Assembly: GCA_044226015.1 (NCBI GenBank)
Contig: JBGAHS010000008.1
Span: 384,001 to 448,000, forward strand
DNA: 64,000 bases
Direction of reading: 5' to 3'
DNA from: Candidatus Obscuribacteraceae bacterium
Lineage (GTDB): Bacteria > Cyanobacteriota > Vampirovibrionia > Obscuribacterales > Obscuribacteraceae
Positions within the stretch are counted from its first letter, which is position 1. Each line of letters opens with the position of its first letter. A program made the position numbers. Shown here piece by piece: positions 27,001-42,000 of this stretch.

Positions 27001-30000
27001 TCTGTCCAGAATTTAGAAAACCGATATAGCTTTTTTGGAAGTGATGCGATGTTGCACAAAATCGGCAGGCATTCACGCAACCCAAGCCAGGAATTATCAC
27101 AGCTGCCTTTGCCGGAATCGGCAGCCCCATTACGCGCCTGTTAATGGTGGATTTCATAATCGGATGTCGCAGCGGGGCAGCGCTATCTTCTCCCAATAAG
27201 TTTCGAAAGAAGTTTATGCCTTCACCTTTGCAAATATAATCACACGGTATGATTTTATCGAGGTCTGTTAAACCTGTGCCGTGCCCGCCGAGAACAATCT
27301 TTGTTTTAGGATAATGCTGACGCACATACTCAGCCATCGCTTTTGCTTTGATTATGTTTGCGGTAATGAAAGAGATACCCACATAATCGTAGCCTTTCTC
27401 AAGTTCTTTCTTGAACCTGTCAAACGAAGGAAAATCGAGCACCGCCGTTGGTGTCTGCAGATTTTCAGCGATGAGATAAAGCCCAAAGCTGGGATGGTTC
27501 ATTCGTAATGAAAATACTCCTTGCTCACGTGTCACTTGATTGTGAAATAGTTCCATCACGTTGAGCCGTCGCCCGTATTCATCGTCAACTCCATACGGTC
27601 CAAACACAGAGCTAAGTAGTAATTTCATTGAAAGGATTCCTTCGTTTGCGAAAAGTGCATGAATCGCCACTTTAGCAAGGGAGAAAATAACTGTCACCTG
27701 AGCACCCATAAGTAACCGGTGACATAAAAGTAACCATAAAGACGCAAAAGGCTTACAATGCGGTTGCACAGCAGAGGACGACAAGTGTTCAAACTGCTAA
27801 ATAGACCTGGTTAAAAACCTTTTCCAGGGACTCGTGGATCTGTTGAGCAGCGCACTGTGCCGACTTTATGCAGTCGGGAAGCCCTACACCAACATATGAA
27901 TTTCCTGCAAGAAATATTCCTGGACTTAATAAAAGATCTTTCTCTATCGCAGCAACAAGCTTAGAATGCCCTACGGTGTATTGAGGAATTGCATTGTCAT
28001 AGCGCGACAAAACATGCATCTTTGGACGCCCTTCGATATCCAATAGTTTTTGCAACTCGGAATGACACAACTCAATAAGAGCATCATCATCAAGTTTCAT
28101 CGCATCGGCTTTCAATAATCCACCGGTAAAAATGCGCGCAACGAGCTCATCTTCACGCGAGCGCCCACTGAACTTATTGCTGCTGAAACTGCAAGCTGAT
28201 ATGAGCGTACCTTCAACACGTGGAACGACAAAACCGAATCCCTTTGGCTGCTTTTTGATTTGATTCCGCTTATAAACAAGATTCACAATCATGGCAGGAG
28301 ATCTGCGAATGCTTGTAAGTTTGTGCGACACCGATGGATTTATTTCACTGAGCATAAAACCAGCCTGATCGGCCGGCGTAGCAAACACAACAAAATCAGC
28401 ATCGTACCGGCTATTATCAGAGCACAGCACCGTCCACCTGTATGCATTTTTTGCTGCCATAACATGTGAAACTGTTTTTGATGTTTGTACGCAATTCTCT
28501 GGTAGCTCTTTGAGAATACTTTCAACCAGCAACGAAATTCCCTGGTCAAAGCTGGCTAAAATTCCATATCGAGGTCCAGCCGATGCCGTTGCTGCACGTT
28601 CTCGCTTTTTACCTTGCATCAATCCGCGAATAATACTTCCATATTTCTTTTCGAGTTGAACCAATTGCGGAATGGTGCTTGATGCGCTTAGAAATTCAGG
28701 GTCACCGCCGTAAATGCCGCCTATCATCGGCTCTGCGAGCTTGGTTAAGGCTTCTTGCCCAAGTCTTCTTTTGACAAAACTGGAGAGACTTTCATCATCT
28801 TGAGTCAAGTTTGCAGGCAAGATCATGTCCATTGCCATTCTCAATTTTCCTGAAATGGAAAATATATTGCTTTTTGCAAACGACCAGAGATCAGATGGAG
28901 CAATCATCATGAAGCCATCTGGAAGTGCATGAAGTTTTCCACTCAAGGAAACAAAACTACGTCGATTAGTTTCAGCAGTCGAGATAACCCTGTGCTTAAT
29001 TTGCAATTTCGCTGCAAGACTCAAAACCTCAGGTTTCAAGGTGCTGAATGATTCTGGTCCGCATTCTAATAAGAGATCATCTTGCTTGATTGTATTGATC
29101 ACGCCACCAGGTCGCGAAGACTTTTCGAGTATACGAATATTCATCTCCGGACATAAGCTCATGAGTTCGTAAGCGCATGCCAAACCAGAGATACCACCAC
29201 CAATGATGATAGTACTCAAAGCTTTTTTCTCAGACTGTAAGGGGTTCATAGCGTTCCAGTATATGACTGCCACAATCATTTGGTCTCATCCTTTCGGATG
29301 ATGAATGTTAACCATTCCGTAAGTAACTCACATACTCACTTAGGACGATTACGCACCAGTTGGGCGGTGACATAATAAACCATGATAACTGGATATATTT
29401 GTCCAAATTAAGATGGATAGCTGATTAAGGCTAGAGAAAATGGATGTAACTCACGGTTTCGTGTCTTCAAAATTCAAGAAATTTCGCATGTCATATCGGC
29501 ACAGCTCGCGAAATAAAGTTGTAAAAGCTCTGCTGAGCGTCAGTTTTATAAGTAGTTGTCTGGTAGCACCTGCGGTGGCAGATGCAAATTCAGGCTCAGA
29601 CTTATTTCAAAGTAAATGTGCTGGTTGTCACACACTGGGAAAGGGCGCTCTTGTCGGTCCTGACCTTGCAGGAACCAAAACCTGGGATGACGAAAAGCTT
29701 AGCGGTGCAATCAAACGAATGGAGGGATCGGTCGGTCCTCTAGCAGCAAATGAGACCAGCGACCTGATTGCGTTCTTGAAAAATCCGCCTTCAGGCGATG
29801 CAGCAAAATCAACAGACGGCGCTCAAGCGACTGCTAGCGATTCTACTAAGAAACCTGCGGATGGGGCGCAAACAACGAGTAGCGAACAAGCAAACGCAGA
29901 GCCTGCAAAAGAAGCCCCCAAAGACGAATTACAAGCTCTGGGCTCAGCACTTGACGGAGAAATGCTATTTGATGGAAGAAAAGCGTTTTCGAATGGCGGT

Positions 30001-39000: not shown

Positions 39001-42000
39001 CTGGCTGTCGTTTTTCTTGATTGGGGATTCGCCCACTTAATCATGGGATTCTATCGCAAGTCGCAAGCGAAAAAGCTAAAGCGCGGCGAAACGACATGAG
39101 GAGCCGATCTTGCAAAAAAAACAAGAGCTCGTTGAGTCCAGCCTTACTCGACAAATTCAGTGAGTCCAAATTTAGTGACGTGCGCCAGGACGTCCACCGG
39201 GTTTGCTATCAGCTAATGGAATGCTTGAACAAAGTGGTGCCTTTGACTCCTGTACAAGTTCTGCCAGCGTTGAACTGGCAAAGGCAAGCTCAACTGCCGC
39301 CGTTGCTTCAGAAAGCCGTTTATGCAGTGGACACAAATTCATTCCGTGCGTTTCAAGTCCTAGAGGGCAAACGTCGATGCGTTTAATTGGGTCAACCGCG
39401 TTCACGATGTCGAGAACCGTTATTTCTTCTACTGGTCGTGACAAAACGAAGCCACCACCGATTCCTCTCTGCGAAATAACCAAATGTGAACGACCCAATT
39501 GCTGGAGGATTTTGCTCAAGTAGTGAACGGATACTTTGGTTGTTTCTGCTATTTGTTCAGCTGTAGCAGCCGAGCCGCGCATGGCTAGGAACACCATGGC
39601 TCTCAATGCATACTCAGCAGTTTGCGATATCATCTTTTGCCTCTTTCAACACTTTCAATACATAAATAACAGATCCTTACCGTTTGCACAATTGACCAAG
39701 AGACTGAAAAGTTAATAGTCAGTAAGGCTGAACACTGTCTTGAAAAAGGCACAAATTGTCTTGAGAAAGATAGTCTCCTGATTCGGCAAAAGCACGAGCA
39801 CGCGAACCACCGCAAATCGCCTTGTAGCGGCATGTTCCGCACTTACCACGCAAAAGCGAAGGGTTCCGCAAATCTTTGAATAATTGCGATTCACGATATA
39901 TTTCCACAAGGCTTTGATCCCTCAAATTGCCTGCTGGGAGAGGGAGAAAGCCACTTGGACAAATATCTCCAGTATGAGAGATGAACAAAGTTCCTTTGCC
40001 ATCATTTACAGACTGATAGGAACGTAGTGCACCAAGTCGCATCTGGGGGCTCAGATCATCGAGATTATGATTAGATTGAGCCGAAAAAATGGTCTCTAGT
40101 AGAACTCTGCGAAACTGTGGAGCCGCAGTAGCTTTAACATCAAAGCTGGATGATACCGATAGTTCAGCCATCTTTTTCAAAACTTCTTCCGCTTGAGTGG
40201 CAGTGATTTGCATCTCTTGATGCGCTCTACCAGTAGGCACAACAAAGAACAAGCTCCACAAAACGGCAGCATTGAGTTCACTCACAAAGAAATGCATGTT
40301 GTCAAAATAATCAATGTTGTGTTTGCTTATGCTTGTGTTTATTTGGACTGGAATACCAAATTCTTTAGCCCACGAAATTATGTCCAAAGTTCGTGCAAAA
40401 CTTCCATCAATACGCCTGAACGCATCATGCAACTGAGCCGTGTGCCCGTCCATACTGATTGCGAGACGCTCGATTCCAGCCTCTGCCAACCTCAAGACAA
40501 CCTGTTCGGTAACTTTCGGCGTCGCACTTGGAGTGATGGCAACTTTGAAATTACGGCGCTTACATTCTTGAATTATTTCAAACAGATCTGGACGCTCAAG
40601 AGGATCGCCCCCAGTCAAAATTATTAGCGGATTATCAAATTCTTGAAGTTGATTCAACACCTGCTCTATCTCTTCGGTGCTCAATTCCTGAGCGGCCCGC
40701 CGCCTCTGTGCGCGCGCACGGCAGTGCTGACAAGCCAATCCGCAAGCCCTGGTCAATTCCCACAGAACTATGTAAGGGGATTGATCAAAACTCATTTTCT
40801 TGAACGAATTATTTGAATTTGTGCTCACGTGAAGCCTCTTTGCACGGTTTGCTGCACGGTAACCATTATGTCTCAGGCTCGAGATCAGCAACCTCAGTCC
40901 AAAGATGGATACCTGTACGAAATGATAATTTCAGTCGAAAGACTACTCCCTAAGAACGATGAATCCATCTTACGGATAACCGACAATTGAAGGACATTTG
41001 GACATCTTTGTCGTATTTCAACACGACTTCAGAACCTTTAGAAATTCTGTACCCGTTCAAAAAAAAGAAGAAGAGAACCTATGACTATTCAATCACCAAT
41101 TCCGAGTTCAGAATCGAGCCAGCCAGTCAGATCTGATCTAGGCAGATCTGATTTGATTGGCTGGAATCCTGAAGACGAAAATTTTTGGGAGAAGCAGGGA
41201 AAAAAAGTTGCCTTCCGCAACTTATGGATTTCCGTACCCTGCCTACTTTGCGCATTTGCGGTTTGGATGTACTGGAGCATTATTACAGTACAAATGCTAA
41301 ACCTCGGCTTCCCCTACACGAAAGCTGAACTCTTTACACTTTCATCAATCGCAGGGCTATCAGGCGCGACGCTGCGAATTCCTAGTACTTTCTTGATACG
41401 CATGTGTGGCGGCAGAAACACAATTTTCTTCAGCACTCTTTTATTGATTTTTCCAGCCCTGGGCACAGGTTTAGCATTGCAAGATACGAATACTCCGCTC
41501 TGGGTATTTCAAGCCATGGCATTGCTATCTGGACTCGGTGGTGGCAATTTTGCTTCATCAATGTCAAACATTTCATTCTTCTTTCCCAAGAAAATGCAAG
41601 GACTTTCGCTGGGACTAAACGCTGGCGTAGGGAACTTTGGTGTTACAACCATGCAAATACTGGTACCACTGGCAATGACCATGGGGTTGGCAGGGCAGCA
41701 TTCAATGACATTGAAATCTGCTAGCGGAACACTTATCGGAAAAATTCCAGCAGGCACGGAAACCTATATCCAAAATGCTGGATTCATCTGGGTTCTCATC
41801 CTCACTCCACTGGTCATACTCTCGTGGATGTTGATGAACAATATACGCGACGAGCACGTTTCACCGGACACCGGCTCACCCCTTTCAGCAATCTCACGAG
41901 CGGGTGGAATGCTTTCAATCGGTCTTTTGACATCAGCTCTTGGCGCATGGGCTCTCTTACCTGCAAAATCAGGTGGGCTCGGAGTCAATCAATGGCTGGT

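Follow-up and report, generated by a model that had tools for sequence, protein, structure and literature searches.

In the window analysed here (the whole stretch of 64,000 nucleotides from contig JBGAHS010000008.1 of a Candidatus Obscuribacteraceae bacterium), we identified a run of seven genes, narC-narG-narH-narJ followed by a NarI::Rieske fusion, a cytochrome b and a cytochrome c (29440-39099), that probably encodes an obligate menaquinol:nitrate oxidoreductase in which a NarGHI of the NarC type is combined with a Rieske/cytochrome b complex. The membrane anchor of this nitrate reductase is fused to a Rieske protein and lacks a residue belonging to its quinol site, a combination which suggests that electrons may pass to nitrate via a Q-cycle, at about twice the usual energy yield.

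Composition of the operon and the fusion protein

All seven open reading frames are on the forward strand, at the coordinates given in the initial annotation, with neighboring genes spaced -4 to +16 nt apart if narH and narJ are assumed to start at 33996 and 35495, respectively (Table 1). The narH frame is listed from a TTG at 33948, but the ATG at 33996 fits the homologues, which align from residue 17; narJ is listed from 35444, with 35495 as the likely start, and there is an ATGA overlap at either end of this gene. The NCBIfam models for narG, narI and narH scored above their cut-offs, whereas NarJ fell just below (54.9 vs. 59.35), although above the Pfam threshold. The frame of the fusion contains no stops, and the two Pfam domains previously noted on this protein were recovered (Nitrate_red_gam at 3-218, E = 9.6e-59, and Rieske at 306-389), along with its motifs RRDFLKGG (237-244), CTHLGC (347-352) and CPCH (366-369). 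The AlphaFold model of the fusion has a mean pLDDT of 81.6 and a pTM of 0.50, and its NarI part superimposes on 1q16_C with a TM-score of 0.80 of the target. An assembly artefact was rejected because 38 of the 107 genomes of the order carry full-length, stop-free copies, with the fusion of one further genome split by a contig end. The NarI-Tat junction is also bridged by contigs from RNA libraries of two studies (X1 record 5 and X2 record 15), which are putative transcripts.

Table 1. Coordinates of the features in the window and the basis of each assignment
Feature	Position	Strand	Basis
NarC-type dihaem cytochrome c	29440..30342	+	signal peptide, two His/Met class-I haem domains, C-terminal membrane anchor
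NarG, cytoplasmic, Mo-bisPGD and FS0	30347..33979	+	TIGR01580, 1535.9 bits (cut-off 1084)
NarH Fe-S subunit	33996..35498	+	TIGR01660, 637.7 bits (cut-off 524)
NarJ chaperone	35495..36037	+	Pfam Nitrate_red_del, E 3e-12
NarI::Rieske fusion, 438 aa	36034..37350	+	Pfam domains, stop-free frame, alignment, AlphaFold model
NarI domain, five helices, four haem-ligand His	36034..36699	+	alignments
Val83 at the position of E. coli Lys86 / Thermus Arg84	36280-36282	+	alignment
Internal RRDFLK (twin-arginine) motif and sixth helix of weak hydrophobicity, then basic residues	36742..36834	+	conservation in 129 proteins
Charged conserved helix of 30 residues that links the anchor to the Rieske head	36850..36939	+	model helix 273-302; conserved
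Rieske domain: CTHLGC, CPCH, disulfide Cys pair	36946..37326	+	Pfam, alignment
Unsplit cytochrome b, 368 aa, four His, no haem-ci Cys	37347..38453	+	alignment
KPEWY Qo motif of cytochrome b	38229-38243	+	alignment
Orphan monohaem cytochrome c	38467..39099	+	signal peptide, mature chain from 38563, TSP3-like acidic repeat, C-terminal helix
CALCH haem motif of orphan cytochrome c	38614-38628	+	sequence
Two NarK-family nitrate/nitrite transporters (outside the seven-gene span)	41081..44346	+	TIGR00886 matches below cut-off

The features of a cytoplasmic respiratory NarGHI are NarH, NarJ and a five-helix NarI; NarG has about 60% identity to Thermus NarG, retains Asp207, the Mo ligand, as well as the His/Cys motif of FS0, and, as stated in the initial annotation, has no twin-arginine signal. 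As in Thermus, narC is the first gene and encodes a dihaem, membrane-anchored protein (E = 2e-15 against Thermus NarC, with 30% identity across 210 aa), with both CxxCH motifs, Met94 and Met231 invariant across 31 aligned rows. The Rieske/cytochrome b features are a Tat-anchored Rieske domain that has the two cluster boxes as well as the disulfide pair of Cys, encoded directly 5' of cytochrome b. The cluster ligands are conserved, and the two potential-setting positions of the Rieske domain are Ser (S371) and Phe (F373) in all of the 155 fused proteins and, in a held-out set of 117, in every one of the 116 that contain both motifs.

Taking the sidedness of NarI (C-terminus inside) from E. coli NarI, a single chain is predicted from sequence to bear five Sec-inserted helices and an outward-facing Rieske domain, joined through an internal helix that would be inserted by Tat. 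This sixth helix follows the pattern of dual Sec/Tat (class IV) proteins, namely an internal RR on the cytoplasmic side ahead of the final helix, weak hydrophobicity of that helix, positive charge C-terminal to it and a TatC in the host: RRxF is present in 124 of 129 proteins, the sixth helix is the least hydrophobic one in 111/129, and all 129 have at least one K/R at 259-273. No conserved cleavage motif was found in the anchor across the fused relatives. The charged helix that follows the anchor is also present in unfused Rieske proteins of the same clade.

In cytochrome b, H97, H111, H206 and H221 are invariant and PEWY is present in 95% of 61 rows, with truncated rows counted. A cytochrome b6f complex was rejected, given the single 368-aa chain and the lack of the CxGG haem-ci Cys, with Tyr46 (YYTGG) at the cytochrome b6 Cys position; PF16639 (cytochrome f) had no match in this genome. 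The cytochrome c encoded last belongs to an Atlas cluster of 280 members labelled 'hypothetical protein'; 10 out of 47 members touch Cytochrome_CBB3, and these only weakly (E values of at least 0.006); fold searches matched the tail helix alone or came back empty, and no conserved distal Met or His was found in the alignment. Its predicted model is all-helical, unlike the beta-rich cytochrome f, and we found no sequence match between the two proteins. The likeness to cytochrome f consists of signal cleavage before Tyr-Pro and a near-terminal CxxCH, with a spacing of 17 residues compared to 21 in cytochrome f, which binds haem with Tyr1 and His25 (PMC8044140).

Distribution of the fusion and loss of the Lys86 equivalent

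The fusion was identified in 39 of the 107 genomes of Obscuribacterales and in several other phyla, a range far wider than Obscuribacterales alone; none of the named matches is from a cultured organism. The same gene order was found in 62 fusion loci. In loci of sufficient length, the fusion was accompanied by cytochrome b (56/56), cytochrome c (51/51), narJ (57/57), narH (55/55), narG (40/41) and narC (31/32), the single exception for narG and narC being L076, in which both genes are further away; narK genes adjoin most of the related operons.

The four haem-ligand His noted initially (His54, His64, His182 and His200, equivalent to E. coli His56, His66, His187 and His205) are 100% conserved in 154 fused relatives. 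In contrast, Lys86 of E. coli NarI, which we take to be a quinol-site residue needed for quinol oxidation, is replaced by Val, as had been reported, in a gap-free register (E. coli K86, Shewanella K87, Pontibrevibacter K88, Thermus R84, and V83 here). A basic residue occupies this column in 0 of 155 fused proteins vs. 99 of 119 unfused relatives (Arg in the 99), and in 0 of 113 readable proteins of the held-out fused set (n = 117). The Lys two residues further on, to which the initial annotation had drawn attention, is present (K85) but not conserved among fused relatives. A remodelled quinol site on NarI is nevertheless possible, because Gly65 is often kept (70/155 and 113/114 fused proteins), a K/R is found within four positions of the column in 56/155, and Glu88 is invariant. 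A structure search found E. coli NarI structures with K86A and with Q-site inhibitors.

In the NarI tree, all 34 fused NarI and most of the unfused NarI without the Lys are on one branch (support 98/97), and the NarG tree concurs in placing fusion and Lys loss in one clade (support 100). The Lys-less unfused NarI are mostly nested within the fused clade, with a few outside (e.g., L121, L123, L098, L128 and P0261). Lys-less NarI also occur in narCGHJI operons without a bc gene on the contig (L052-L058, L066, L069 and L107), and this bc module is therefore not a prerequisite for losing the residue. Separate NarI-Rieske fusions were found on other branches (P0265, P0276 and P0309), and NarI is fused once to an ActA-like multihaem protein (P0354).

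Proposed electron path and alternatives

Under the reading that we consider probable, menaquinol, for which the host encodes futalosine-pathway genes, would be oxidized at the Qo site of cytochrome b, with one electron cycling via the b haems and the other leaving via the Rieske cluster to the orphan cytochrome c, the NarC haems, the distal and then the proximal haem of NarI, NarH and finally NarG; of these steps, we are least sure of the succession of c-type carriers. NarI would thus act as a transmembrane wire fed by cytochrome c rather than as a quinol oxidase, and each nitrate would be accompanied by 2 charges from the Q-cycle and 2 from the inward wire, that is, 4 vs. 2 for E. coli NarGHI. 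Haem bD of E. coli is of low potential, so the step from cytochrome c to bD would need retuned potentials. The initial annotation had proposed a fixed supercomplex, and its physical link holds, because NarI and the Rieske anchor form one chain with no conserved cleavage motif and cytochrome b is the next gene in 56/56 loci of sufficient length, whereas we infer the direction of electron flow and the proton yield. Of the two electron targets proposed there, nitrate gains support because the Lys86 equivalent is lost in every readable fused protein; downstream denitrification enzymes appear a weak candidate, because a possible NirK or NosZ was found in only 3 of the 39 fusion genomes. Tentatively, a stronger form may be considered, in which the assembly is an obligate complex III-nitrate reductase supercomplex, a nitrate counterpart of the III-IV supercomplexes, with NarI solely a wire and, as Rieske acceptor, a helical monohaem protein that is neither c1 nor f and has an N-terminal amine as sixth ligand (cf. 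cytochrome f); NarI would have been joined to complex III/ACIII subunits several times independently.

It is also conceivable, though rather unlikely, that NarI oxidizes menaquinol at a remodelled site and passes the electrons to NarG, while the bc module and NarC feed other outward acceptors (nitrite, NO and N2O reductases, a cbb3 oxidase or a peroxidase). The retained Gly65 and Glu88 are compatible with this, as is the persistence of Lys-less NarI without an adjoining bc module, which counts against the obligate complex. So does the proposal that Thermus NarC is an outflow to Nir and Nor (PMC7694296). Stand-alone bc modules occur in 9 genomes of the order, several next to small cytochromes c and a porin-like protein, and cbb3-type oxidase genes are present in this genome. 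However, the oxidases have their own bc genes (contigs C4 and C5), the NO reductase is long and qNor-like as judged by length and sequence, and no fused protein keeps the basic residue that Thermus keeps. This genome has no NirK above the cut-off, no NosZ and no NrfA, and its NirS-family match is weak. No NirK-like, NirS or NosZ match was found in 36 of the 39 fusion genomes (the NirS search having no positive control), the exceptions being G066 (NosZ) and G096 and G097 (NirK-like, below the cut-off); this lack of another cytochrome c-fed N-oxide sink was counted in favor of the path to nitrate.

We consider it improbable that the two enzymes are merely co-assembled or co-localized, sharing the quinone pool without direct electron exchange, or that the fusion is cleaved after insertion. 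The two halves were released again in evolution (unfused NarI and stand-alone Rieske-cytochrome b-cytochrome c sets are nested among the fused ones), the model has no fixed packing between them, and this protein has an A-G-A stretch past the helix core. That stretch, however, is not conserved as AxA, and such an arrangement leaves unexplained the loss of the Lys86 equivalent on the fusion branch, the retention of narC in nearly all loci and the destination of the bc electrons under anoxia. Slightly less probable still is the reverse direction, with a cytoplasmic nitrite oxidoreductase passing electrons out via NarI and NarC and the tethered bc complex running uphill to reduce quinone. A NarI without a quinol site is compatible with both directions, a very similar narC-type cluster is the NXR of Nitrobacter (PMC7694296), and PMC6349859, in the parts that concern the Melainabacteria enzyme, labels it a cytoplasmic nitrate/nitrite oxidoreductase from its tree, although the supplement predicts reduction; no named NxrA of the Nitrobacter type was found, and the Thr/Asn site is not diagnostic (10.1101/317552). 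Against oxidation, RuBisCO, the sole carbon-fixation marker covered (for the Calvin cycle), is found in 0 of the 107 genomes (positive controls matched), and the neighboring genes point to anaerobiosis and NO stress (class III ribonucleotide reductase, RIC, Rrf2 and narK, with hemN in a relative).

Relation to known systems and significance

Compared to E. coli NarGHI (PDB 1Q16), the NarI fold, the four haem His and the NarG ligands are shared, whereas the E. coli enzyme has Lys86, oxidizes quinol directly and has neither NarC nor a fusion. The usual assumption for a cytoplasmic Nar is 2 H+ per nitrate. Such enzymes are held to bypass the Rieske/cytochrome b complex (PMC3509893). The narCGHJI cluster of Thermus thermophilus (PMC7694296) shares the gene order, the dihaem NarC, the cytoplasmic NarG and the helix-III Glu in NarI, but its NarI is unfused with Arg at the Lys86 position, and the cluster has no bc genes; in Thermus, complex III is repressed and the role proposed for NarC is the export of electrons from Nar. 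The haloarchaeal cluster (PMC3509893) likewise has Rieske and cytochrome b genes and a proposed Q-cycle feed of nitrate reduction, but its periplasmic NarG and lack of a cytochrome c are not shared here, where electrons must cross the membrane through NarI because NarG is cytoplasmic. The path and yield favored here are those argued for Nar1 of Streptomyces coelicolor spores (PMC7931247), a Q-cycle feeding c haems, NarI bD/bP and cytoplasmic nitrate with 4 vs. 2 H+, a proton scheme already published there. For Nar1, the coupling rests on its dependence on a shared bcc that is encoded separately (the bcc-aa3 supercomplex) and with which it co-purifies, unlike the dedicated bc module in this operon, which is covalently joined to NarI.

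That bc and nar genes lie together is likewise already in print: the main text and Supplementary Note 6 of PMC6349859, attributing the same observation to Soo et al. 2017, describe bc genes (petB) beside narG/NXR in Melainabacteria, with a predicted role in nitrate/nitrite reduction, very probably the same locus type. These parts of the paper give no mechanism and say nothing of the fusion, of NarC or of the orphan cytochrome, and we found no description of a NarI::Rieske fusion in the literature. The actinobacterial QcrA, Sco3746 and polyferredoxin, as presented in the sections of PMC5449189 on dual Sec/Tat proteins, also have an internal RR ahead of a weakly hydrophobic last helix that is followed by basic residues, but not five Sec helices with the N-terminus outside and a sixth Tat helix, and the NarI::Rieske family is not among the dual Sec/Tat families given there.

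The fusion adds a new architecture to the predicted dual Sec/Tat substrates, and the orphan cytochrome c may represent a new acceptor of electrons from Rieske proteins. In this operon, a Q-cycle-fed nitrate reductase would be encoded as a single unit, in which the two parts are covalently linked and NarI carries a corresponding change. If this reading is true, nitrate-to-nitrite respiration in these uncultured bacteria would yield about twice the energy that has been assumed.

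Organisation and distribution of the fusion operon

We confirmed the seven open reading frames of the initial annotation at their stated positions, all on the plus strand with intergenic gaps of -4 to +16 nt, and found its motifs in the fusion protein at the residues it named. Pfam and NCBIfam assign a c-type cytochrome, NarG, NarH, NarJ, NarI plus Rieske in a single 438-aa frame, and cytochrome b, and neither assigns a family to the seventh frame, the orphan cytochrome. Of the 107 Obscuribacterales genomes, 38 carry the whole fusion without a stop, and in 1 more it is divided by a contig end. 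The 20 fusion loci taken from GTDB genomes bear the titles Verrucomicrobiota, Calditrichaeota, Eisenbacteria, Alphaproteobacteria, Proteobacteria or unassigned; Bacteroidota and Spirochaetota names likewise occur among carriers, and Hydrogenedentota are commonest in one Atlas cluster (n = 58). Occurrence is patchy: in the phylum of one carrier, 301 genomes were sampled and 2 have the fusion. The named matches include no cultured carrier, and 0 of 72,556 plasmids cover 80% of the fusion.

Gene order was compared in 62 fusion loci, a partly redundant set that includes the window itself. Wherever the DNA was long enough, the order was kept for cytochrome b (56/56), the orphan cytochrome (51/51), narJ (57/57) and narH (55/55). 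Upstream, counting loci where the DNA reached, narG was in place in 40 of 41 and narC in 31 of 32; in the sole exception (L076) both genes are present further upstream. The fusion is real and conserved. In two RNA runs, 0.06 of the words were present, these data being contigs that carry neither level nor strand. The palindrome that precedes both narC and narK was rejected, being a post hoc pattern present in 1 of 11 relatives.

Features of the window, of its genome (G000, contigs C1, C4, C5 and C8) and of compared loci (L numbers)
Feature	Location	Strand	Remarks
Fusion operon	window 29440-39099	+	
NarI::Rieske gene	window 36034-37350	+	
Operon flanks	window 21667-29279, 39172-40891		genes for anaerobiosis and haem: nrdD, nrdG, RIC, B12 radical SAM, Rrf2 regulator, haem-synthesis-like radical SAM; protoporphyrinogen oxidase, divergent from narC
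Imperfect palindromes, similar	window 29391-29404, 41000-41013		precede narC and narK1; no conservation among relatives
277-aa membrane protein	window 19228-20061	-	weak COX1-family match under cut-off
540-aa protein	window 16686-18308	-	unannotated family, several paralogues in genome; relatives also adjoin the operon in L042, L043, L046
narG	L041:13203-16843		split in one relative; may be frameshift or assembly error
Cytochrome b gene	L017:8067-9418		as for L041
Orphan cytochrome gene	L033:5626-6270		as for L041
Unfused bc and nar genes	L095:3-10714		Rieske, cytochrome b, hexahaem NarC-like cytochrome, narGHJI; NarI keeps Arg
Stand-alone bc modules	L033:8187-11594, L034:581-3582, L036:10461-13406, L037:10947-14229, L040:4005-5856		adjoin small cytochromes c and a 426-557 aa porin-like protein without family
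Rieske/cytochrome b pair	G000 C4:145215-149404		membrane proteins on flanks
Two cytochrome b genes without PEWY	G000 C5:64495-72989		followed by cbb3-type oxidase
Trihaem COX1-family fusion	G000 C1:305393-308188		931 aa
qNor-like protein	G000 C8:473536-475932		

The Lys86 position and the descent of the fusion

NarG is cytoplasmic with its ligands kept, and is ~60% identical to Thermus NarG vs ~49% to proteobacterial NarG; the first gene encodes a NarC homologue with two invariant Met ligands. The NarI domain is modelled with a fold like that of 1q16_C and keeps the four His. We take Lys86 of E. coli NarI to be important for quinol oxidation, and the PDB entry for K86A has its change from wild type where it is expected. 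Because MAFFT placed E. coli wrongly in the Lys86 helix, we used a gap-free register from the conserved Gly to Arg-Arg, a spacing of 17 residues that all five proteins share; in this register the column holds K86 in E. coli, K87 in Shewanella, K88 in Pontibrevibacter, R84 in Thermus and V83 in the query. This register bears out the change to Val that had been pointed out earlier; the Lys two residues on (K85), as a stand-in, is not conserved. When the residue five before the conserved Glu88 was counted in the large set, K/R occurred in 0 of 155 fused proteins vs 99 of 119 shorter relatives, some of which may be cut fusions (P0126, a known contig-end fragment, was excluded), and in a held-out set of 117 proteins it occurred in 0 of the 113 readable. 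Because the sequences are related, these counts stand for a single event rather than for hundreds.

The NarI tree has 102 rows, and a single branch (98/97) holds every fused row (34) together with 17 that are unfused and Lys-less; within it, the L052-L058 group nests next to the fused L062. A 52-row NarG tree (FastTree) agrees, with support of 100. The trees therefore place the fusion on the same branch as the loss of the basic residue. An order in which Lys was lost first is not the favoured one: the fused clade encloses most of the Lys-less unfused NarI, copies that seem to have shed the bc part later; the proteins P0134 and P0139 and the locus L107 do not resolve at the base of this clade. 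Nar operons whose NarI has neither a Lys86 equivalent nor a Rieske part were seen at L052-L058, L066, L069 and L107. A simple reading of the Lys86 loss is opposed by several observations: Gly65 is often kept in fused proteins, Glu88 is invariant, K/R lies near the position in 56 of 155 fused proteins, a few Lys-less NarI fall outside the fused clade, and NarI of the Lys-less kind evidently endure with no bc genes beside them; such genes accompany 1 of 56 unfused metagenome loci (L095, Arg kept). A change of Gly65 to Ala was discarded as a general second site-closing change, as 113 of 114 proteins in the held-out set have Gly.

When 1.84 billion representatives were searched with a profile, the fusion came up in about six 50% clusters, alongside other chimeras. 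NarI is joined to a QcrA-like Rieske in P0265 and P0309 (the latter without either His of the proximal-haem pair), to an AioB-like Rieske in P0276 and an ActA-like multihaem protein in P0354 (both types judged by eye), and to cytochrome c in P0272 and P0286. In the NarI tree, the fused clade does not include the three other Rieske fusions, and P0265, P0276, P0309 and P0354 are independent NarI fusions; P0309 has at least 9 full-length members among the 15 of its 18 listed, and P0265, P0354 and P0272 are one-member clusters. The unfused locus L095 is a second way to put a bc module into a nar operon. In P0263, a NarC haem-1 domain is joined via one helix to this clade's Rieske (41%); as a Rosetta link between NarC and Rieske it is weak, being a one-member cluster that could be a deletion product.

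The bc half and the orphan cytochrome

Both cluster boxes and the disulfide Cys pair are present in the Rieske domain, with Ser and Phe at the two potential-setting positions. According to the accessible part of PMC3509893, Ser/Tyr give a high and Gly/Phe a low potential, from which we infer an intermediate redox potential for the fused Rieske. Cytochrome b is unsplit and b6-like in sequence, with four His, KPEWY and no haem-ci Cys, and the host genome has futalosine-pathway genes and TatC. Placing the C-terminus of NarI in the cytoplasm puts the RR motif on the correct side. Of 129 rows, 124 have RRxF, 111 have the sixth as their least hydrophobic helix on the Kyte-Doolittle scale, and every one carries basic residues after that helix; these features agree with the dual Sec/Tat rules in the available text of PMC5449189, and also match class IV in that of PMC13673990. 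The model places a conserved, unexplained 30-residue helix between anchor and Rieske head.

In 9 genomes of the order, this clade is represented by Rieske-cytochrome b-cytochrome c modules that stand alone. The 8 placed in a tree nest among the fused ones, which speaks against them as donors of the bc part of the fusion, with rough support from a tree that has unsettled bootstrap, long outgroups and sampling from this order only. Their further neighbours include an RR-bearing hemerythrin and a cytochrome with the motif PAFARKY...CxxCH...GY.FRRLGY, which presumably resembles the Cyc2 haem domain; modules and neighbours are possibly a split porin-cytochrome conduit.

The orphan cytochrome, whose gene is always next after cytochrome b, carries a single CxxCH motif, and neither Met nor His is conserved in it. 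Among 55 homologues, one frame lacks the motif; in the other 54, with AxA-like sites read by eye, the mature chain begins in every case with Tyr/Phe/His, and from there to the first Cys the distance is invariably 17 residues. Cytochrome f has a Tyr-Pro start 21 residues before CxxCH in the three plus-strand loci read (3/8), and binds haem via Tyr1 according to the accessible part of PMC8044140. The shared start pattern makes haem ligation by the N-terminal amine a lead for the orphan cytochrome. Its confident model (pLDDT 95.9) is all-helical and it is therefore not a cytochrome f; we reject homology, the likeness being confined to the N-terminal pattern. The sequence matched no Pfam family over cut-off and no PDB sequence under E 0.06, and the model gave no Foldseek match and, with VIA-align, the tail helix as its sole match (Z <= 5.8). 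We claim no new fold, as the haem domain was not folded alone.

Proposed electron path and earlier accounts

On balance we favour a serial path, in which electrons would run from menaquinol through Qo, the Rieske, the orphan cytochrome, NarC, the NarI haems and NarH to NarG. The same path, with a 4-versus-2 H+ yield over a span of ~505 mV, is set out for Streptomyces Nar1 in the accessible text of PMC7931247. A branch carrying electrons to other reductases seems unlikely. The locus L003, with nrfHA nearby, fits it, but NosZ and NrfA are absent from this genome (92% complete), where no NirK passes the cut-off and the NirS family gives only a weak match; across the order, NirK-like proteins occur in 2 of 107 genomes (under cut-off) and NosZ in 3 of 107, NirS was found in 0 of 107 in a search in which the positive controls were also silent, and NirK is missing in five carriers from other phyla. 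This gene content weakens that part of the initial annotation in which electrons would reach downstream denitrification enzymes. That the fusion is a scaffold only is improbable, and reverse, NXR-like operation slightly more so: Nitrobacter offers a precedent (PMC7694296, in part), but RuBisCO is found in 0 of 107 order genomes.

The claim of novelty holds in part. The literature searched, with most subscription journals outside its reach, contains no account of a NarI::Rieske fusion, nor do the accessible portions of PMC5600118, PMC8808070, PMC11327836, 10.1101/317552 and 10.64898/2026.08.18.745454. However, petB beside NXR/Nar had already been noted: the available part of PMC6349859 describes a Melainabacteria genome in which petB and narK come after an NXR/Nar locus; in its supplement nitrate/nitrite reduction is the predicted activity, and Soo et al. 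2017 is cited for an arrangement like this one. In haloarchaeal pNar (PMC3509893) and Caldithrix Nap (PMC5317091), as far as the available text of each goes, bc genes accompany an outward-facing reductase. Nitrate respiration coupled to a bc module is known, and the fusion is a variant of it with a testable mechanism.
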